DNA of 37,172 nucleotides from Pseudomonadota bacterium (GCA_021848375.1 JAJZUR010000001.1:1-37172); one strand, 5' to 3'; positions 1,906 to 31,829 are shown, counted from the stretch's first letter. A program made the numbers and translations. Notes: generated by a model not told the origin, from the letters alone.

Positions 1906-3000
1906 ATGAACAACATAATCGAATTAAAAGGGGTTTCTAAATATTATCACGATCATCCAGTGTTGCAGGATATTGATCTAGAAGTCAAAAATCGTGAATT
2001 TTTAACCATTTTAGGTCCTTCTGGTTGCGGAAAAACAACTTTATTGCGTCTGATTTCTGGATTTGAAACACCGAGTAGCGGCACAATTTTGATGAAAGGA
2101 AAAGATGTTTCAGAGTTGCCTGCGCCCTTACGGCATGTCAACACCGTTTTTCAAAGCTATGCCCTTTTTCCACACATGAATGTGTTTGAGAACGTTGCGT
2201 TTGGTTTACGTTGTCAGCACCTCCCCAAAGACGAAATAGATCATCGGGTGCGCGAGGCATTGCGAATGGTTAAGCTCGAACATTTGATATTACGCAAACC
2301 ACATCAATTAAGCGGGGGACAGCAACAACGTATTGCAATAGCGCGTGCAGTGGTGAATAAGCCATTGGTTTTATTGTTAGATGAACCGTTAAGTTCTTTA
2401 GATTATCGTTTACGTAAAACCATGCAAATGGAATTAAAACAATTACAAAGTGATTTGGGTATCACTTTCATTTTAGTGACACATGATCAAGAAGAAGCAT
2501 TATCGACGGCTGATCGAGTAGTCATTATGAATCATGGATTGATCGAACAAATTGGTACGCCGCGGGCTGTATATGAAGAACCCGAAAATTTACATGTTGC
2601 ACAATTCGTAGGCGAAGTGAATATTTTTAATGCGAAGGTTTTAGCAATTTCTCCTGATACGATTGAGGTGGAGTTTGAGGGTAAGCAGTTTACGTTAAAA
2701 AATAGTAAAAATTTTTCCGAAGCAGAATTCTTGTATATATTATTACGACCCGAAGATTTAGAAGTTTGGGGCGTTAATGAAGTGCAAAATCCAGAAAATA
2801 TGTATTCGGCTAATGTAGTACAAGTAATTTACAAGGGCTCAACGGTAGATTTAATCCTAAAATTAAAATCGGGTACTCAAATTTTAGCGACTCAATTTTT
2901 TAATGAAGATGATGAGAAGTTGGATTTTAGATTGGGTGAATCGGTGTGGGTTTGTTGGCGTTCCGGCTGGGAGGTCATTTTAGCAAATGACACAAGATAA
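1906..3000 (+). CDS. potA: Spermidine/putrescine ABC importer ATPase PotA
   Basis: Walker A GPSGCGKTT, signature LSGGQQQRIAIARA, Walker B LLLDEPLSSLD. Long blocks match my recollection of E. coli PotA (NTVFQSYALFPHMNVFENVAFGLR; FFNEDDEKLDF...WEVILA). ATG 1906 is preferred over TTG 1885. Confidence 0.93.
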   Translation: MNNIIELKGVSKYYHDHPVLQDIDLEVKNREFLTILGPSGCGKTTLLRLISGFETPSSGTILMKGKDVSELPAPLRHVNTVFQSYALFPHMNVFENVAFGLRCQHLPKDEIDHRVREALRMVKLEHLILRKPHQLSGGQQQRIAIARAVVNKPLVLLLDEPLSSLDYRLRKTMQMELKQLQSDLGITFILVTHDQEEALSTADRVVIMNHGLIEQIGTPRAVYEEPENLHVAQFVGEVNIFNAKVLAISPDTIEVEFEGKQFTLKNSKNFSEAEFLYILLRPEDLEVWGVNEVQNPENMYSANVVQVIYKGSTVDLILKLKSGTQILATQFFNEDDEKLDFRLGESVWVCWRSGWEVILANDTR

Positions 3001-3847
3001 ACTCTTTCGTACCTTTTCTACCACTATCGTTTGGTTTTGGTTAAGCGTCTTTGCTCTCGTGCCCAGTTTTTTGTTATTCATGACCAGTCTACTCGTTCAT
3101 GGAGATAGCGAATTAGTTCGATTGCAGTTTACGGTAGATAATTATTTACAGTTATTTAATGCCAATTATCTCAGAGTATTTTTACGTTCTTTTTTGTTGG
3201 CCGGCGCTTGTACTGTGGGATGCTTATTATTAGCCTATCCCTTTAGTTATTTGATTGCCAGATCAGCGGATCGCTATAAAGGGATCTTATTATTATTAGT
3301 CGTTATACCTTTTTGGACCAGTTCACTCATTCGCTCTTATGCGATTGTTGCGATTTTAAAAACTCATGGGATCCTGAATACTTTTTTACTTTGGGTAGGG
3401 ATAATCGATACCCCGATACAAATGTTATATACTGATACTGCGACTTTGATCGGGTTAATTTATACCCTGCTGCCCTTAATGATTTTGCCTTTGTATGCCA
3501 GCATTGAAAAATTAGATACGCGCTTAATTGATGCAGCATGCGATCTTGGCGCTAACAAAATCCAAGTACTTTTAAAAATCCTCTTACCATTAACACTGCC
3601 AGGTATTTTATCGGGTTGTGTTTTGGTGTTTTTACCAGCCATGACTATATTTTATATTCCTGATTTATTAGGGGGTGCTAAAACACTCTTAATTGGCAAT
3701 ATCATTCAAAGTCAATTCCTAGCGGCGCGTAATTGGCCGATGGGAGCAACCATTAGTGTTGCCTTAACGCTTTTAATGAGCATGATGCTCTTTATTTATT
3801 GGCGCTGTTATAAACATAAAAAAGAGCCGATGTATGAATCGTATTAG
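2987..3847 (+). CDS. potB: Spermidine/putrescine ABC permease PotB
   Basis: Polytopic membrane protein with the ABC permease EAA-type loop (IDAACDLGANKIQVLLKILLP). Its start overlaps the potA stop, and its operon position fits. Confidence 0.85.
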   Translation: MTQDKLFRTFSTTIVWFWLSVFALVPSFLLFMTSLLVHGDSELVRLQFTVDNYLQLFNANYLRVFLRSFLLAGACTVGCLLLAYPFSYLIARSADRYKGILLLLVVIPFWTSSLIRSYAIVAILKTHGILNTFLLWVGIIDTPIQMLYTDTATLIGLIYTLLPLMILPLYASIEKLDTRLIDAACDLGANKIQVLLKILLPLTLPGILSGCVLVFLPAMTIFYIPDLLGGAKTLLIGNIIQSQFLAARNWPMGATISVALTLLMSMMLFIYWRCYKHKKEPMYESY

Positions 3848-4604
3848 CAGGTTAGCCTATTTGATGGCAGTTTATTTATTTTTGTATGCGCCTATTTTTG
3901 TATTGGTTGCTTATTCGTTTAATGATTCTTCTTATTCCATGTTGTGGCAAGGGTTTACCTTGCGCTGGTACCACAGTTTGATAGAAAATATCGATCTTCA
4001 GGTAGTTGCTTTTCATTCTTTACTGGTAGGTGTTTTAGCTGCCACAGGTGCGACATCCATTGGCACATTAGCGGCCGTGTCTTTATATCGATATAATTTT
4101 TTTGGAAAAAAATTATTACATGCCCTAATTTTTATTTTGATAATTTCGCCCGATATTGTTATCGGAATTTCCTTGTTGATTCTATTTTCAACCTTAAAAA
4201 TTTCGCTTGGATTTTGGTCCTTGTTATTATCTCACATTACCTTTTGTATTCCCTTTGTGACGGTCACCGTTTATTCACGCCTTGCTGGACAAGATAAAAA
4301 TTTGTTTGAGGCAGCTAAAGATTTAGGCGCAACTGAAGGAACGATCTTTAGGCGTATTTTGATCCCTTTATTATGGCCAGCCATTATTGCAGGATGGCTA
4401 TTGAGTTTTACCCTATCATTAGATGATGTCATTATTAGTTTTTTTGTTACGGGTCCTGAATTTGATATTTTACCCTTGAAGATATTTTCAATGGTAAGAG
4501 TTGGCGTGAAGCCAGAAGTCAATGCCTTATGCTCCGTGTTATTTGGGTTAACGTTAGCGTTAGTGTTAGCTTATCAGTATTGCACTTGGAAAAAACGGTC
4601 ATGA
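3834..4604 (+). CDS. potC: Spermidine/putrescine ABC permease PotC
   Basis: Six-TM-type permease with the EAA loop FEAAKDLGATEGTIFRRILIPL. It overlaps the potB stop and the potD start. Confidence 0.85.
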   Translation: MNRISRLAYLMAVYLFLYAPIFVLVAYSFNDSSYSMLWQGFTLRWYHSLIENIDLQVVAFHSLLVGVLAATGATSIGTLAAVSLYRYNFFGKKLLHALIFILIISPDIVIGISLLILFSTLKISLGFWSLLLSHITFCIPFVTVTVYSRLAGQDKNLFEAAKDLGATEGTIFRRILIPLLWPAIIAGWLLSFTLSLDDVIISFFVTGPEFDILPLKIFSMVRVGVKPEVNALCSVLFGLTLALVLAYQYCTWKKRS

Positions 4605-5647
4605 AAAATGGCAAATTTTTTATTGTTTTGGTGATGTTCTGGTGGATTGTTACGCCTAACCTTTTTGCAAACGACAATATCTTAAATATTTATACCTGGG
4701 CGGGTTATTTGCCAGATTCAGTGATTCAGGCTTTTGAAGCAGAAACTGGAATTCAGGTTAACCATTCTACTTATGTGAATAATGAAGTCTTGTACGCCAA
4801 ATTAAAAGCCAACCCAGATGTGGGATATGATGTGGTGATCCCTTCTACTTATTTTATTAGCCGCATGGTCAAGCAAGATATGTTACAGAAGATAGATAAA
4901 TCCAAGCTATCCCTGTTGAAAAATATCGATCCGGTTTTTCTAAATAAAGAACACGATCCTGAGAATGAATATGGAGTTCCTTATTTGTGGAATAGCACAG
5001 GTATTGCAGTCAATACGCGCTATCATTCAAAGGAAAGTGTATTAGCATGGCGCGATTTATGGAATTCACGTTATAAAAATCAACTATTGATGTTAGATGA
5101 TGCTCGTGAGATTTTTGCGGTGGCGCTGTTAACCTTGGGCTATTCAGTGAATGAAACCAATCCTGTACATATCCAAAGTGCTTTTTTAAAACTGCAGGCG
5201 TTAATGGACAATATCAAATTATTCAATTTAGATGCGCAGCGTTCTATTTATTTAGACGAGGATATTACTCTTGGAATGGGCTGGAATGGCGATATATTTA
5301 TCGCTAAGCAAGAGAATTCTAATCTTGCTTTTATTTATCCAACAGAAGGATATATTGTGGCATTGGATTGCGTTGCTATTCCCAAAGGCGCAAAACATGT
5401 GGAGGCTGCTCATCGATTTATTGATTTTATTTTGCGGGGTTCTGTTGCAAAAGAAATTAGTGAGAGTACAGGGTTTTCGACACCGAATATTGTCGGGAGA
5501 GGGTTGTTACCGGATAACATCCGCAATGATGAAATTTTGTACCCCAACGCCGAAATTTTGAAGCGGGCACATTTGTTGACGGATGTCGGGGAGCTTGCTC
5601 CCCTGTATGAAAAATATTACGAACTTTTAAAACTTGAAACGAGGTAA
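4601..5647 (+). CDS. potD: Periplasmic spermidine/putrescine-binding protein PotD
   Basis: Signal peptide MKNGKFFIVLVMFWWIVTPNLFA. PotD-like blocks: LNIYTWAGYLP, YDVVIPSTYF, IDKSKL, GMGWNGD, LYPNAEIL. The ATG at 4601 forms an ATGA overlap with the potC stop. Confidence 0.9.
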   Translation: MKNGKFFIVLVMFWWIVTPNLFANDNILNIYTWAGYLPDSVIQAFEAETGIQVNHSTYVNNEVLYAKLKANPDVGYDVVIPSTYFISRMVKQDMLQKIDKSKLSLLKNIDPVFLNKEHDPENEYGVPYLWNSTGIAVNTRYHSKESVLAWRDLWNSRYKNQLLMLDDAREIFAVALLTLGYSVNETNPVHIQSAFLKLQALMDNIKLFNLDAQRSIYLDEDITLGMGWNGDIFIAKQENSNLAFIYPTEGYIVALDCVAIPKGAKHVEAAHRFIDFILRGSVAKEISESTGFSTPNIVGRGLLPDNIRNDEILYPNAEILKRAHLLTDVGELAPLYEKYYELLKLETR

Positions 5648-6182: not shown

Positions 6183-6384
6183 AGGTTGTTCTCCATGTAG
6201 TGAGGCAACTAAAACCCATAAAAGCATCTATAACCGAGTTCGTATTTAGTGTATGCAATAATTTACTACTTGACAATTATTCGATTTCAGCGATGATGAT
6301 ACTAGCACTTAGCCCAACCTTGTGTTAGGGTTATTTTTTTATGTAATGTGTTCTCATGAGCCAACGGTTAGGAGGCAAGAATAG

Positions 6385-7818
6385 ATGAAGAGGAAAATGC
6401 ACTCTAAGATAGCGACAGGATTTGTTAGCAGCTTAGCAATGGTTAGCTTAGCTATTAGTGGTAATGCGTTTGCAGACAAGGTGAAACACCAAAATAAAGT
6501 TGCCGCTAAACCAGCAGCAAAGGTTATTCATCATCATCACCGCAAACTCCATAAGTTACATAAAACGGCTGATGGATGGGAATTAGGACAGGGTTGGTTA
6601 TTAACGTCTACCGGTGGGCTTTCTTATGTGCATCCAAATGATGATAGTTATTGGGTTAAGGTCAGTGGTACTGTGCGGTTAGATGAAACCGTATACATGG
6701 GAAATTATAGAGATAAAGGAACAGCCCAATTTCAAAGCGGCGCATTATTGCGTACTGCTGATCTCTATTTAGATGGTGGGCTGGGTAAAAATTGGGAATA
6801 CACTATTTCATTAGATTTTGCTGAGAGTGCGGGTAGCCATTTTGGTTTTGGAGATACCTGGCTAGCTTATTCTGGCTTTATGGAAAATAACCAAGTGTTT
6901 GTTGGGCAGGTGGCCGGCAACTGGTTTGGTTTAGATAATTCCAACAGTACGAGTTGGAATGCGTTTCTAGAAAAAAGTATACAGTCCTCTGCTTTTTATA
7001 TTGGCGATGGACTTGGGGTAATGACCGATTTTTGGTGGGACATGGGAGCAGTTACGTTAGTAGCAATGCAGCCTGAACAGGGCAGCAACGGTATCGCTGG
7101 CGTTCGTGATCGATGGAAAGGGACAGCGCGTGCGACCATTGCACCAAAACATGAAGCAGGTGATGTATGGCACTTTGGTGTTTCAGGCGCATGGCGTGAA
7201 ATGATCAGCTCTTTGAATGGAACCGCTTTTCCAAATGCAGGGAATCCAACCGGCGGTGGGGTAAACTATACCGCGCGGCCACCAGCGCGTAGTCGGAATA
7301 CCGTCGCGTTGTTGAATACTGCCTCGGGTAACGGTGGAGTGGACAGTGTATTAAATGGGCAAAATATTGTGGCCAACAATACTCGTCACTTTAACGTAGA
7401 AGCCGCAAGACAAGTCGGTCCTTTCATGTTAGAGGGCGAATATACGAACGTATTTGTTCACCGCATGTCGGGTTACCTAGGAACTTTAAGATTCTCTGGT
7501 TATAATGTGCAGTCCCGATATCTGTTAACCGGCGAATATCATCAATATGACGTACGTGATGGCCAATTTGGTGCAGTAAATCCGGTTGGTCCTTATGGCG
7601 CATTTGAAATTGCTGCTCGATACGACTTTGTTGACTTAAATAACAAAGACGTTCGGGGGGGCATGGAACATGATGTAACCGTAGGCTTTAATTGGTTTGT
7701 TAATAAACAAGTTCGGTTGTCTATGAATTATGTTCATGCTTCTATTCATCCGGCATTGGATGCTCAGCAACGCAACTTGGACATTATTGGGATGCGGGCT
7801 CAGATCCGGTTTAAATAA
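6385..7818 (+). CDS. Phosphate-selective porin O/P family outer-membrane protein (paralog 1)
   Basis: AGGAGG SD and signal peptide ...AISGNAFA. Beta-barrel-type alternating sequence ending ...MRAQIRFK, with a C-terminal aromatic residue at -2. Shares blocks with the ORF at 15102 (LGxNWFVN..VR...NY..A). Confidence 0.75.
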   Translation: MKRKMHSKIATGFVSSLAMVSLAISGNAFADKVKHQNKVAAKPAAKVIHHHHRKLHKLHKTADGWELGQGWLLTSTGGLSYVHPNDDSYWVKVSGTVRLDETVYMGNYRDKGTAQFQSGALLRTADLYLDGGLGKNWEYTISLDFAESAGSHFGFGDTWLAYSGFMENNQVFVGQVAGNWFGLDNSNSTSWNAFLEKSIQSSAFYIGDGLGVMTDFWWDMGAVTLVAMQPEQGSNGIAGVRDRWKGTARATIAPKHEAGDVWHFGVSGAWREMISSLNGTAFPNAGNPTGGGVNYTARPPARSRNTVALLNTASGNGGVDSVLNGQNIVANNTRHFNVEAARQVGPFMLEGEYTNVFVHRMSGYLGTLRFSGYNVQSRYLLTGEYHQYDVRDGQFGAVNPVGPYGAFEIAARYDFVDLNNKDVRGGMEHDVTVGFNWFVNKQVRLSMNYVHASIHPALDAQQRNLDIIGMRAQIRFK

Positions 7819-27580: not shown

Positions 27581-28321
27581 ATGAAAAAAATGTTGCGTAA
27601 AAAAGATGGCAGTGAAATTGCTTATCATAAAATCGATCGCACGAAGCCAGATCTGCCTGGGGTTGTATTTTTAGGCGGTTTTCACTCAGATATGAGCGGT
27701 TCGAAGGCATGTTATCTAGAAGCATGCTGTAAGCGTTGGGGAAATGCCTATGTGCGCTTCGATTATTTTGCGCATGGAGAAACACCAGGGGATTTTGCGC
27801 AAGGCACCATTGGCCGATGGTTAGATGATACTTTGGCAATTATAGATGAATTAACCGAAGGTCCACAAATTTTGGTCGGCTCTAGTATGGGCGGTTGGAT
27901 CATGCTATTGGCAACGCTGAAAAGGCTTGCTCGCGTTAAAGGGTTAGTCGGGATCGCTGCTGCACCCGATTTTTTGGATGATATTGAACGTTTATCAATC
28001 GATCAACATCAAGCGTTAGTCAAGCATGGGGTATGTTATATTCCAGCAGCAGAAGGCGATCCTTATCCCATCACAGAAAATTTAGTGACAGAAGGCAGAA
28101 ATCATCGGGTATTAACAGCCCCCATTGCTATTCATTGTCCTGTGCGCTTACTACATGGATTAGCCGATCCCGATGTGCCATGGCAAAAATCGATAGAGAT
28201 TTCTGAACTTATCCTCTCAGAGGATGTTATCGTGACGCTGATTAAAGATGGAGATCATCGATTATCCAATGACCAACAATTGAAGATCTTAGGCGATACG
28301 GTGTTTGGGCTTTTTAACTGA
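27581..28321 (+). CDS. Alpha/beta-fold hydrolase (serine esterase)
   Basis: Nucleophile elbow VGSSMGG, oxyanion-region FLGGFHS, and a late D...H (GDHRL). Confidence 0.7.
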   Translation: MKKMLRKKDGSEIAYHKIDRTKPDLPGVVFLGGFHSDMSGSKACYLEACCKRWGNAYVRFDYFAHGETPGDFAQGTIGRWLDDTLAIIDELTEGPQILVGSSMGGWIMLLATLKRLARVKGLVGIAAAPDFLDDIERLSIDQHQALVKHGVCYIPAAEGDPYPITENLVTEGRNHRVLTAPIAIHCPVRLLHGLADPDVPWQKSIEISELILSEDVIVTLIKDGDHRLSNDQQLKILGDTVFGLFN

Positions 28322-29002
28322 TCTTAAGTATTTTTTTCTTTCTTTTTCTGCAAATCGTTCAATGGCGTAGCGTAAAGTCGTTCTTGGCATCACAGGATGA
28401 TGGGTTTTTAGAAATGTTTTTAAGGCTTTTATATCCCGTTTGCCGACTTCACGCAGCATCCATCCAGTTGCTTTATGGATCAAATCTTCTTCATCTTTTA
28501 ATAATAATCCAGCTAATTTTAAAGTATCTTGGAGTTTATTCTTTCGAATAAACCACCACGTAGAAACGATTGCAATCCGGCGATCCCAAATATGATTCGA
28601 TTTTACGAGGGTATAAAGTATTTTTTTATCACGCCGCAGCAAATACTTGCCGACAATATAGGGGGCGCTATCATCTACGCCATCCCAATCTCGAATCGCT
28701 TTGCGGTTTTTGAGATAAAATTGATAGATCTTGCCTTGTTCTTTTTCATTCCCGTCTTCAAATTTTAAACGCAAAATGGCGTGCGCAAGGCTTCTTTCAT
28801 CACGAACTTTGGAGTGCATTAAAGTCCGCACTTCTTTTAAAGGGATGTCCCAAAATTCTTTGGCAATAATCCGAATAATGGGGGCAGGGATACCTAAAAA
28901 GATATCCGTTTTGCAATTTTTAAAAAAATTGCGATGAATAATAGCTTTTTGGGGATCACTGTGTTTTTTTAGTCTTTGTTGGATTAGACTTGATCGTGCC
29001 AT
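28289..29002 (-). CDS. DNA alkylation repair protein family (AlkD-like HEAT-repeat protein)
   Basis: N-terminal L..L....DP.KA...RNFFK....FLGIPAPIIRIIAKEF pattern, and later W....R.AIVSTWWFIRK, typical of the DNA_alkylation family. ATG lies 17 nt after the stop of the HTH gene. Confidence 0.65.
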   Translation of the reverse strand: MARSSLIQQRLKKHSDPQKAIIHRNFFKNCKTDIFLGIPAPIIRIIAKEFWDIPLKEVRTLMHSKVRDERSLAHAILRLKFEDGNEKEQGKIYQFYLKNRKAIRDWDGVDDSAPYIVGKYLLRRDKKILYTLVKSNHIWDRRIAIVSTWWFIRKNKLQDTLKLAGLLLKDEEDLIHKATGWMLREVGKRDIKALKTFLKTHHPVMPRTTLRYAIERFAEKERKKYLRSVKKPKHRIA

Positions 29003-29019
29003 TGTCTTGGTTCCTATTT

Positions 29020-29511
29020 TTATGGTAAGGGTATTAAATCGCGAATTGTGATTAAAATTGAACCATCTTCTTTTTCCAAGCGATTGGCAACATATTTGCG
29101 TCGAGCTTCTTGTTCTATGGCTAAATGGTTTTTGGAAAAGACTTCATCAAGTGTTCTTTCGTCTTTATGATAATAATCTTCCAAGGCTTCCTCTGAAATT
29201 GCACAACGTATTTTTTTACCATTATCTTGGCCCCAAAAGGTAAAAATTCGGTGAGTAGCATCATAATATGCTTGTGCTTTTTTTTCATGGGAGAAGGTTA
29301 AATTTCTGTTGTCAAGCATTCCAAGTACCCCTAATATACTAAAGACGGTTGATATTTGAATATCTTTATCGCCACTTTCAAAACGCGAAAGTGTAGGAGT
29401 GCTGACATTCGCAATTCTCGCTAAATGCTGCTGAGTTAGCTTTTGCTTTTTCCGCCTTTGCTTTGCCTCTTCAACAATAACTGCCCAATTGAGTCGAAAC
29501 TGCCTTTCCAT
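29020..29511 (-). CDS. XRE-family HTH protein (HipB-like N-terminus) with an extra C-terminal domain of about 90 aa
   Basis: HTH LTQQHLARIANVSTPTLSRFESG. The C-terminal region IFTFWGQDNGKKIRCAISEEALEDYY...NHLAIEQEARRKY reminds me of DUF1488-type domains (unverified). GGAGAA SD 5 nt before ATG 29511, which lies 76 nt inside hipA. Confidence 0.65.
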   Translation of the reverse strand: MERQFRLNWAVIVEEAKQRRKKQKLTQQHLARIANVSTPTLSRFESGDKDIQISTVFSILGVLGMLDNRNLTFSHEKKAQAYYDATHRIFTFWGQDNGKKIRCAISEEALEDYYHKDERTLDEVFSKNHLAIEQEARRKYVANRLEKEDGSILITIRDLIPLP

Positions 29512-30683
29512 CGTTTCTCCATTATATCAATAAGCTTGTTGCGTAAAAATGGCACAGCAACTTCGCATTTGGAAATCGCTGTTAATGTTGCAGAGAAGTG
29601 CTTTTTTAGATCTTCTACAGCGCCTAAAATGGCGTTCTCATTTAAACCAAACCCATATCCCATTTCAATTAAATGTTTTGCTTTCAGCATGCCTATATCT
29701 AAGTCTACAGCGCCACCAACTTGTAAAGCAATCGTATGATATTCTTTGTAGCGTGCGGCGGCGACCAAATCATAAGCTGGTGTTAGACGTAAGCCATCAA
29801 GGGTATGGAACATTGCAAAATTTTTAAAATGAGCATCGGTATTACCGAGCAAAAAACAAGCCAAAATTCTTTTATAGAGACGTTCTGATTCAATAGCCGC
29901 GCATTCTGGGTTTGTATAAATAAAGTTCCCCATATTTTCATAAGAACCATTATATTTTTTTTCTGATGAATGACCTAAAAGTTGATTAAATTCCTCGAAA
30001 TGAATTCTTTTAATATTCCCTTTATCTGATGAAGTACGATCGAAACGTTTGACGATAAGCGCTGGTTCGTTGATAGATGCAATAGAACCAATTTCTAATT
30101 CAACACATTCGTCATTGGGAAGAATCTTTTTGATGGCGAGCGTTGTTAGATATTCTAGTTCAACTATATCTTGTAAATTACCAGATGCTAACTTGGCAAT
30201 ATGAGTGCTTAATTCATTACCATGCGCGGGTCTGAATTTATTTCCTTCCTTAACCACCATTAATTTTCGTTGGATCCCAGATAAAGAGGCGCGTCCTAAC
30301 AAAGCAGCCGTGGTGACATCATCCGCATGCGCTAAAGAAATGTGTTCACGTGGCTCAGGATCTCGTATGGAGACTGCGCCAATCAAATCATAACCAAATC
30401 CGAGAAGTAGAGCGAAACGGTTTGTGGAATCTACTTGTAAGGCGCGTGCTTGGGCTTTTTGAAACCATCCTTCAGCAACGAGGTTATCAAAGTAAGGGTG
30501 GAGTCCAGATTCAGCAATAAACGCCTTTTCACGTAAGGGAAGCGTATAAGAGATGGGGCACGGTGACGGGGAGTGCAGATAGGCGGGATCATAGGTAAAT
30601 ACATAACGCCCATTTGGCTCTTTTTGTAAAAGTCCCGCATAGGCATCTTGATAATAGACCCTACCCCAAAGCGCTGTTGCCAT
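29436..30683 (-). CDS. hipA: HipA-family serine/threonine kinase (type II toxin-like), full length with N-terminal domain
   Basis: SLSGIQRKL (Gly-rich loop region), catalytic loop GNTDAHFKNF, PAYDL. At 415 aa it is comparable to E. coli HipA. Confidence 0.85.
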   Translation of the reverse strand: MATALWGRVYYQDAYAGLLQKEPNGRYVFTYDPAYLHSPSPCPISYTLPLREKAFIAESGLHPYFDNLVAEGWFQKAQARALQVDSTNRFALLLGFGYDLIGAVSIRDPEPREHISLAHADDVTTAALLGRASLSGIQRKLMVVKEGNKFRPAHGNELSTHIAKLASGNLQDIVELEYLTTLAIKKILPNDECVELEIGSIASINEPALIVKRFDRTSSDKGNIKRIHFEEFNQLLGHSSEKKYNGSYENMGNFIYTNPECAAIESERLYKRILACFLLGNTDAHFKNFAMFHTLDGLRLTPAYDLVAAARYKEYHTIALQVGGAVDLDIGMLKAKHLIEMGYGFGLNENAILGAVEDLKKHFSATLTAISKCEVAVPFLRNKLIDIMEKRWKGSFDSIGQLLLKRQSKGGKSKS

Positions 30684-30720
30684 ACAGATACCTTAATATT
30701 CCCAGTTTGTTGGCTTATAA

Positions 30721-30859
30721 TATTAACTATAGTTTATATTATAGTATATATCATAAATTATATAAAATATAATTTATATAATCAATTAAAATAGGTATTA
30801 ATATAAAATATATTTTATAAAAAATGAAAATTTAATCAAATTATTAACTACCTTTTATA
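30721..30859. repeat. AT-rich divergent control region with an 18-bp direct repeat pair and an 18-bp perfect palindrome
   Basis: TATTAACTAnnnTTTATA occurs at 30721-30738 and 30842-30859 (15/18 identical). The perfect palindrome tataaaatatattttata lies at 30802-30819. I count 12 G/C in the 150 nt of 30721-30870. Confidence 0.6.
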
Positions 30860-30923
30860 AATTTATATAAAAGTCCAGTAACAACCCTTGGCTCCTAGTG
30901 CTGTGGGCTGTTACCCTAATCTC

Positions 30924-31829
30924 ATGAACCAAATGCAACTCTCACCAACGTTTATTTCGTTTATTCAGGCAGCTTATAAAGAGCAAGGCATTGTCTGGTT
31001 GCGGCAATTACCGACGCAATTGGAACGGCTTGCCAAGCGTTGGAATTTTCGATTACTAAAGACCGTTACGAATCTAACGTTCAGTTTTGTAGGGATTGTT
31101 GAGCTACAGGAGAATGGTGAGCGGGCGATACTGAAAGTGGTGCCGAAGGGTGGGCGGGTGATTGAGGAAGCGCATTGGCTGCAATGTGTAAAAAGTGGTG
31201 TGCCAATCGTTTTTCAAATGGATGAAGAAGAACCGGCGGTATTGATGGAATATTTGGAGCCCGGACATTCGCTCAAAAAATTGGTACAAACAGGATCGGA
31301 TGACAAAGCAACCCGGATCATTTGCCAAATGATTTTAGCATTGCAATCGCAACAACAAAAAACCTATCCGTTTAAACATCTTTCTGAATTAATAAAAGAT
31401 CTGGACCATTTAAAAGGACATATTGACAGCTCTATCTTATCAAAAGCCCAATCTTGGTTTCAGGATTTGACAATAGATCATTCAAACGATGTATTGCTGC
31501 ATGGTGACTTACATCATGAGAATATTCTGGCGCATCATGATGGATGGAAGGTTATTGACCCCCATGGTTATAGGGGGGATCCAGCCGCAGAAATAGGAGC
31601 GATGGTGCGTAATCCTTGGGACTGTTTTCCAACTGAACATTCGATGCCTAAAATCATTGAACGGCGCTTAAAAATATTAGCGGAAGAATTACCTTTTGAT
31701 CGCGAAAGAATGAAAGCATGGGCTTTTTGTATGGCTGTCTTGTCGGAGGCGTGGCATATACAAGATTTTGGGATTGATGCAAAAATTGATTTGGATATGA
31801 TTGCTGCGATTGAAAAGGTTAAACTGTAA
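30924..31829 (+). CDS. Aminoglycoside/streptomycin 6-kinase-like phosphotransferase (APH(6) family)
   Basis: LHGDLHHENIL and WKVIDPHGYRGDP, with C-terminal AFCMAVLSEAW. These parallel the StrB/APH(6)-Id blocks LHGDLHHENIM, WLVIDPVGLVGE and GCLSAAW as I recall them. The start is uncertain (30888 TTG, 30924 or 30933 ATG) and there is no clear SD. Confidence 0.7.
   Translation: MNQMQLSPTFISFIQAAYKEQGIVWLRQLPTQLERLAKRWNFRLLKTVTNLTFSFVGIVELQENGERAILKVVPKGGRVIEEAHWLQCVKSGVPIVFQMDEEEPAVLMEYLEPGHSLKKLVQTGSDDKATRIICQMILALQSQQQKTYPFKHLSELIKDLDHLKGHIDSSILSKAQSWFQDLTIDHSNDVLLHGDLHHENILAHHDGWKVIDPHGYRGDPAAEIGAMVRNPWDCFPTEHSMPKIIERRLKILAEELPFDRERMKAWAFCMAVLSEAWHIQDFGIDAKIDLDMIAAIEKVKL

Follow-up and report, generated by a model that had tools for sequence, protein, structure and literature searches.

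A HipA-family kinase gene and an overlapping HipB-like HTH-DUF1488 gene form a conserved, putative toxin-first module

A stretch of 37,172 nt from a Pseudomonadota bacterium (GCA_021848375.1, JAJZUR010000001.1:1-37172), referred to here as the window and numbered over its whole length, carries three consecutive genes on its minus strand: hipA, which encodes a HipA-family kinase; the gene of a partner protein in which an HTH (helix-turn-helix) domain of HipB type is joined to a DUF1488 domain; and a gene for an AlkD-like DNA glycosylase. We read the first two, with a probability of about 0.6, as a two-gene, toxin-first HipA-type type II toxin-antitoxin (TA)-like module in which hipA precedes the gene of its HipB-like partner. 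The first-pass annotation of this DNA had tentatively joined all three genes into one undescribed kinase toxin module, with the extra domain of the HTH protein as a possible neutraliser and the DNA-repair protein as a functionally coupled third component. Comparison with related loci keeps the two-gene part of that proposal and removes the third gene from it. The features concerned are as follows.

29436-30683, minus strand: hipA, 415 aa, HipA-family Ser/Thr kinase and putative toxin (open reading frame (ORF) call, Pfam, alignment to the E. coli HipA structure)
29020-29511, minus strand: partner gene, 163 aa, HipB-like XRE HTH, linker and DUF1488; putative antitoxin and autorepressor
29320-29463, minus strand: HTH of the partner, residues 17-64 (Pfam HTH_3)
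29053-29271, minus strand: DUF1488 domain of the partner, residues 81-153 (Pfam)
29509-29520, minus strand: ribosome-binding site and start of the partner (GGAGAAACGATG), inside HipA codons M388-E-K-R-W392 (read from the sequence)
29436-29511, minus strand: dual-coding overlap of the hipA 3' end and the partner 5' end, 76 nt, different frame
30721-30859, no strand assigned: operator-like array of four 16-18-bp palindromes ATAAA-N6-TTTAT in the AT-rich intergenic region 5' of hipA
30757-30785, minus strand: best sigma-70-like promoter match, TTGATT-17-TATAAT (10/12 in a consensus scan; a pattern match only)
28289-29002, minus strand: AlkD-like DNA glycosylase gene (PF08713), 237 aa, Pfam DNA_alkylation; outside the conserved module

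The conserved unit comprises two genes

That hipA is intact and stands first in a minus-strand unit, as had been proposed from the DNA itself, is exact to the nucleotide, and direct reading likewise agrees that its sole HTH partner lies downstream. The partner ATG (29511-29509), with GGAG just 5' of it (29520-29517), lies inside hipA in another frame, and the hipA stop codon (29438-29436) sets the overlap at 76 nt. On its 5' side hipA is bordered by a 204-nt intergenic region and then by a divergent APH-like gene, the only HTH gene being the one downstream. These are real genes and not chance ORFs; homologues number more than 330 for the partner and 1470 for the kinase.

To follow the distribution of the unit, one genome per species was scanned for the partner, and the 80 loci so obtained were searched by tblastn with the three window proteins. 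These loci belong to Gamma-, Alpha- and Deltaproteobacteria, Opitutales, Elusimicrobia and Melainabacteria. The partner homologues are about 155 aa long, all combine HTH_3 with DUF1488 and are 53-62% identical. Their N-terminus, MERQF...NW...EEAKQRRK, is kept from the first residue onwards, and the internal start codon is thereby validated. In essentially every sufficiently long locus a HipA homologue (48-68% identity) ends just within the partner gene, and in 72 of the 79 measurable loci it lies immediately 5' of the partner on one strand with the overlap in the same relative frame, so that the order proposed for the window, hipA first with an oversized, overlapping HTH partner downstream, is a conserved feature of the family. 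Among these 79 loci, 34 have an overlap of 76 nt, 24 one of 70 nt and 14 one of 91 nt; every one is 1 mod 3. Conservation over residues 1-25 of the partner (0.85) exceeds that of the HipA tail, residues 393-415 (0.63), the length of which also varies; the cost of the dual-coding overlap thus appears to be borne mainly by HipA.

Crude ORF calling followed by all-against-all clustering of the neighbours in the 80 loci plus the window revealed no recurrent third gene: besides HipA and the partner, no family was present in more than 8 loci. Even the closest HipA relatives (68-70% identity) lie in differing chromosomal contexts, in one case (L164) between an epmA-like gene and psd and in another (L166) with an ankyrin protein on one side and a giant ORF on the other, which fits a mobile cassette. 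From the patchy distribution and the variable context we infer that the conserved unit, hipA plus the partner gene, is a horizontally scattered, mobile bicistron.

The kinase

The profile search proposed for the three proteins at the outset matched in every case. For HipA it returned Couple_hipA (E 9.1e-23) and HipA_C (E 2.4e-38), both over their gathering scores, to which NCBIfam adds TIGR03071 couple_hipA. The protein is only distantly related to E. coli HipA (phmmer E 3e-17), and its motifs SLSGIQRK, THIAK, TDAHFKN and PAYD pair with those of the E. coli enzyme in an alignment to 2wiu/3tpd, with equivalents of E. coli HipA S150, K181, D309 (the catalytic Asp) and D332 (the Mg-binding Asp) all present, as are the serines of the Gly-rich loop. 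All 74 clade members share S133, S135, K164, D283, H285, K287, N288 and D305. The structures of HipS and HipT match separate parts of the single 415-aa chain. On the strength of both domains and the catalytic motifs the window protein is assigned to the HipA kinase superfamily. Its 1470 homologues occur in about 0.05% of species genomes, mostly of uncultured Proteobacteria, and the only names given to members of the clade in NCBI and JGI are 'HipA domain-containing protein', 'DUF1488 family protein' and 'XRE-family regulator'.

The partner and the role of DUF1488

The description of the partner as an oversized HTH protein with an additional C-terminal domain is borne out by Pfam, which identifies HTH_3 (E 1e-9) and DUF1488 (PF07369, E 4.1e-11); its best NCBIfam match is couple_hipB, below the model cutoff. 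The AlphaFold2 model (mean local confidence, pLDDT, 88) has five helices in the HTH, followed by a linker and an alpha+beta domain. In Foldseek searches the N-terminal half matches the HipB structures 9u9g (P. fluorescens), 8ezt (L. pneumophila) and 4pu7 (S. oneidensis), and it is to solved HipB antitoxins that the HTH is structurally closest, with 42-44% identity and a root-mean-square deviation of 1.1 Å to S. oneidensis HipB. The top Protein Data Bank match of the C-terminal half is 2gpi (E 1.5e-4, template modelling (TM) score 0.74), the prototype of DUF1488. That protein, Shew_3726, is a stand-alone protein of 91 aa with a unique fold and a function described as unknown (PMC2954204). The window domain shares its alpha+beta fold and differs in that it forms one protein with a HipB-like HTH and is linked genetically to a kinase.

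Neutralisation had been tentatively ascribed to this extra domain at first reading. Taken furthest, the idea would make DUF1488 the real kinase-neutralising domain, like HipS in HipBST, with the HTH serving for DNA binding only. It draws on the retention of a well-conserved DUF1488 in most lineages and on the fusion of the domain to Fic/Doc in two of 104 representative relatives (P0263, 469 aa, and P0274, 190 aa, DUF1488 being C-terminal to Fic/Doc); these fusions hint at a general toxin-associated regulatory role, as a lead and not a finding. Several lines of evidence make it unlikely nonetheless. Partners reduced to the HTH, of 68-74 aa, are found in 5 of 82 relatives on three separate branches of the HipA tree, next to kinases with all catalytic residues, and one such locus holds the closest relative of the window; on this tree, at least three losses of DUF1488 left the kinase intact. 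Sister clades exchange DUF1488 for an unrelated domain while keeping the HTH, and no part of the partner is better conserved than the HTH (mean column identity 0.83-0.85, against 0.68 for DUF1488). The window kinase, moreover, has its own N-subdomain (Couple_hipA), so that no complementing piece like HipS is needed. Because of these losses, the different C-terminus of the outgroup and the higher conservation of the HTH, we take DUF1488 to be accessory and exchangeable and not the domain at the core of neutralisation.

A database search with DUF1488 alone gave 7 matches, mostly truncated calls of the same family. Our literature search found no paper linking HipA with DUF1488, and the papers that mention DUF1488 assign it no function. 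The locus supplies a first genetic context for a 20-year-old domain of unique fold and unknown function.

Operators and translation signals

The intergenic region 5' of hipA contains four 16-bp operator cores (30722-30737, 30762-30777, 30803-30818 and 30843-30858) spaced by 40, 41 and 40 bp. Two are exact and two carry one mismatch in a motif search, and a repeat search independently recovers them as a family, D1, of 4 copies. The palindrome (consensus ATAAAaTATAtTTTAT) lies 5' of hipA in 68 of 71 related loci, with at least two copies in 64 and at least three in 41, at positions that peak at about -100, -60 and -20 relative to the hipA ATG; its density there, 2.66 per 200 nt, compares with 0.015 elsewhere in the same loci, an enrichment of about 180-fold. 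In the family consensus the first operator (O1) is followed by the TTG of the -35 element, the -10 region falls within O2 and O3 abuts the hipA ATG; in the window the promoter match at 30757-30785 overlaps the operator at 30762-30777. The operator and a near-invariant recognition region of the HTH, VSTPTxSRFE, are co-conserved across phyla, high-GC genomes included. The conserved, phased palindromes provide strong in silico evidence that the partner is an autorepressor of its own operon.

The two genes also differ in their translation signals. A Shine-Dalgarno (SD) sequence is lacking before hipA in 64 of 76 loci, with a mean anti-SD free energy of -1.9 kcal/mol, whereas 74 of 82 partner starts have GGAG and the mean is -6.3 kcal/mol. 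Directly 5' of the partner ATG, ATGGAGAAACG is found in nearly all loci. This SD and ATG are encoded within the HipA codons M-E-K-R-W, of which R391 and W392 are invariant.

A proposed mechanism and its alternatives

These features suggest a mechanism in which HipA would be an active Ser/Thr kinase that arrests growth; its target would probably be, on the model of E. coli HipA and HipT, an aminoacyl-tRNA synthetase. The partner would dimerise through its XRE-type HTH, bind the phased ATAAA-N6-TTTAT operators over the -35 and -10 elements and repress the operon, operators in most relatives covering the hipA start codon as well. The same conserved N-terminal HTH module would hold HipA inactive, as HipB does. 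A toxin-first order calls for an excess of antitoxin, and the SD-less hipA set against the strong GGAG and ATG of the partner may secure that excess despite the order of the genes. DUF1488 would be a C-terminal accessory that can be exchanged, perhaps with a role in sensing, in stability or as a second contact, and the AlkD-like gene, as an unrelated chromosomal neighbour, would have no part in the mechanism. The clade so defined is widespread and unnamed, and three of its features lend themselves to experiment: the operator array, the ribosome-binding site inside the toxin gene and the toxin gene that lacks an SD.

Several observations weigh against this reading of the locus. Toxicity, neutralisation, DNA binding and the substrate of the kinase are all inferred. 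The window hipA has a weak AAGG SD and its operator array is placed about 35 nt further upstream, so that no operator overlaps the hipA start; both weaken the argument from translational asymmetry for this particular copy. The conservation of DUF1488 (0.68) and its persistence in most lineages indicate that the domain clearly matters, and where present it could contribute to neutralisation. A search with the partner did not find the module in plasmid or phage collections. Finally, the AlkD-like gene is possibly co-transcribed by read-through in this genome, given the 17-nt gap with no terminator.

The two proteins could also be a signalling pair of kinase and transcription factor, HipA phosphorylating the regulator or being recruited by it so as to control the operon or other genes, or a dedicated abortive-infection defence module whose C-terminus detects a product of phage. 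Variable C-terminal domains on a constant HTH do resemble swappable sensors, phage-responsive antitoxins have been proposed by Gerdes et al. for other Hip families (PMC8262856), and a patchy distribution in variable contexts would fit a defence gene. The PADLOC models, however, have no significant match to the kinase and match the partner through generic HTH models only, neither the phage nor the plasmid collections searched contained the module, and neighbour clustering shows no recurrent defence-island genes. The autoregulatory operators, the tight coupling of the genes and the toxin-type kinase motifs match instead those of validated hipBA and hipAB systems. We therefore consider these alternatives rather improbable, though somewhat less so than neutralisation by DUF1488; the defence version bears on biological role, and the same mechanism could underlie it.

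A wider and more speculative extension of the TA-like module, which we offer tentatively, is that the window represents a large, unnamed toxin-first HipA superfamily in which a constant HipB-like HTH is combined with an exchangeable C-terminal 'input' domain that gates release of the kinase in response, for example, to a phage product or a metabolite. The input would then be DUF1488 here and the ~260-aa domain found on rhizobial plasmids, with none in some lineages. If this is true, DUF1488, whose fold is unique and which is also fused to Fic toxins and common in integron cassettes, would here have its first functional context and would stand out as a general toxin-regulating module.

The AlkD-like gene

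The AlkD-like protein matches DNA_alkylation over its full length (E 8.7e-58), and in an alignment to 3bvs (B. cereus AlkD) it preserves the positions WDxxD and GW(V/M)LRE. These we take to be W109, D113 and W187, the catalytic Trp-Asp-Trp of B. cereus AlkD, and the protein looks functional. As had been noted from the DNA, its ATG lies 17 nt past the partner stop and has its own SD (AGGA), and a terminator scan found no terminator-like site between any of the three genes. A three-component module, in which the kinase, the HTH-DUF1488 protein and the glycosylase are co-transcribed and act together, would account for this arrangement, and the same three-gene order recurs on 3 public contigs with this exact HipA, all of them, however, from the same organism. 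Against it, an AlkD homologue was found in none of the 80 partner loci (tblastn) and beside none of the three closest HipA relatives, which carry psd or a giant ORF downstream instead. Conversely, HipA, the partner and the genes flanking them in the window were found in none of 80 metagenome loci of AlkD homologues, and clustering, as described above, gives no recurrent third gene.

The lack of synteny of the AlkD-like gene in related genomes is the outcome that the first-pass annotation had itself named as fatal to the tricistron. At the level of the family, then, the tricistron and its coupling to DNA repair are refuted, and a three-component module is highly improbable for the window as well. 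The gene is, by these comparisons, an unrelated chance neighbour in one organism and lies outside the module. This does away with an attractive but mistaken connection between a kinase toxin of persistence type and the repair of DNA alkylation.

Relation to known systems

In E. coli K-12 hipBA the gene of HipB (88 aa) lies upstream of that of HipA (440 aa), and HipA phosphorylates GltX. The window module resembles it in the N-subdomain and core of the kinase, the catalytic motifs and the HipB-type XRE-HTH partner, as well as in having several phased palindromic operators over the promoter. The E. coli hipBA promoter has four operators TATCC-N8-GGATA (Black et al. 1994, cited in PMC8978831), which differ in sequence from those of the window. 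The window further differs in its reversed gene order, in a partner that is twice as long and carries DUF1488 and in a kinase that is distant (E 3e-17); the family has an out-of-frame overlap of 70-91 nt and a generally SD-less hipA with a strong partner SD. No HTH gene lies upstream of hipA, here or in the related loci, and the partner is not the short HTH-only protein of ~70-105 aa of a canonical hipBA.

The reversed order as such is known. Several reversals of hipBA have been described by Gerdes, Baerentsen and Brodersen (2021), namely hipAB subclades (8 modules) and the deep-branching HipE (clade IX) of hipEB (12 modules), with HTH partners called HipB (PMC8262856). These share with the window a kinase gene in first place, an HTH gene second in one operon and a kinase that keeps its N-subdomain 1, whereas the main text of that study has no DUF1488, no long conserved overlap and no operators (PMC8262856). 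That sample of 8 and 12 modules compares with 1470 kinase homologues here, and the window clade may well coincide with the HipE or hipAB family, named there though uncharacterised. A functional precedent with a different architecture is the HipAB of S. putrefaciens CN-32 (Sputcn32_2916/2915), for which a toxin-first order, toxicity, neutralisation and autorepression of the promoter have been demonstrated by experiment (PMC8978831). Like the window it pairs a toxin-first HipA with an XRE partner of ~150 aa (152 aa there); unlike it, its HipA has 448 aa, the genes do not overlap and are 4 bp apart, the HTH is C-terminal and DUF1488 is not reported (PMC8978831). Thus the earlier description of the module as undescribed stands only in part: toxin-first hipAB and hipEB have been published (PMC8262856) and one such system has been validated (PMC8978831), while no earlier description appears to exist of the overlap, the operator array or a partner with DUF1488.

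The nearest outgroup kinases (32-35% identity) belong to hipA-first modules on alphaproteobacterial plasmids of Azospirillum, Ensifer, S. meliloti (pSymA) and Sphingobium, of which three were delimited, each in the coordinates of its own locus.

2780-4554 (L167): module of Sphingobium pCFD-2-1
2480-4638 (L168): module of Azospirillum brasilense p3
2480-4659 (L169): module of S. meliloti 1021 pSymA, with no annotated feature in the PLSDB table

There too the partner overlaps the hipA 3' end and its HTH is homologous to that of the window (40% identity, hhalign probability 98.5%). The partner is longer, however, at 330-343 aa, with an unrelated C-terminus of ~260 aa that has no Pfam match; the overlap is only ~4-25 nt, and ATAAA-N6-TTTAT operators were not seen in these modules. 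HipBST, of E. coli O127 and L. pneumophila, likewise joins a HipA-related kinase to an HTH protein, but the three-gene look that it shares with the window is superficial. Its kinase is split into HipS (N-subdomain) and HipT (core), whereas the N-subdomain of the window lies within one 415-aa polypeptide and the third gene of the window is an unrelated, non-syntenic AlkD homologue.

Consequences for annotation

Gene calls on the public contigs with this exact locus begin the partner at Met65, which leaves a DUF1488-only protein of 99 aa (L081, 11365-11664; L082, 6233-6532), and in L166 it is called as 95 aa (6353-6640). The 68-aa HTH-only partner is not called at all in L164 (3562-3768) and L165, both among the closest relatives. 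Common gene finders limit the overlap of genes on the same strand, and an overlap of more than 60 nt exceeds the limit. The truncated and missed calls are therefore likely to stem from the 70-91-nt overlap. Miscalling of this kind probably accounts for some of the DUF1488 entries that databases list as 'stand-alone' and some of the HipA toxins that they list as 'orphan', and surveys of TA and defence systems will under-count the family and score its kinases as orphan toxins.

Other features of the locus

The divergent gene beyond the intergenic region (30888-31829, plus strand) encodes a phosphotransferase of the APH(6)/hydroxyurea-kinase family (PF04655, E 8e-34). It shares with hipA the operator-bearing region, the operator at 30843-30858 lying ~30 nt from its annotated TTG start, and is not syntenic with the module in other loci. 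At the opposite end the AlkD-like gene overlaps the 3' end of a convergent alpha/beta-hydrolase gene (27581-28321) by 33 nt at its own 3' end (28289-28321), which leaves no space for a terminator of either gene.

Between 28000 and 31000 the G+C content is 0.37-0.39, compared with 0.40-0.45 in the flanks, and the GC skew falls to about 0 over the three minus-strand genes; both are compatible with a foreign origin of the block and are not diagnostic of it. A repeat search over 27800-31300 found no flanking direct repeats or insertion scars besides the operator array.

A terminator-like hairpin with a T-run lies inside hipA (29582-29554, minus strand), ~45 nt 5' of the partner start, and is within chance, as 3 terminator-like sites were found and 4.1 expected. 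Across the family a home-made detector of hairpins followed by T-runs does not discriminate, scoring 26 of 80 loci downstream of the partner gene and 26 of 78 inside hipA.

In one gammaproteobacterial metagenome-assembled genome two copies of the hipA/HTH-DUF1488 pair (L026 and L033) lie ~40 kb apart on the contig CAWDUG010000013.1, and in a further locus (L037) an additional, distant HipA-like match lies ~5 kb downstream of the module.

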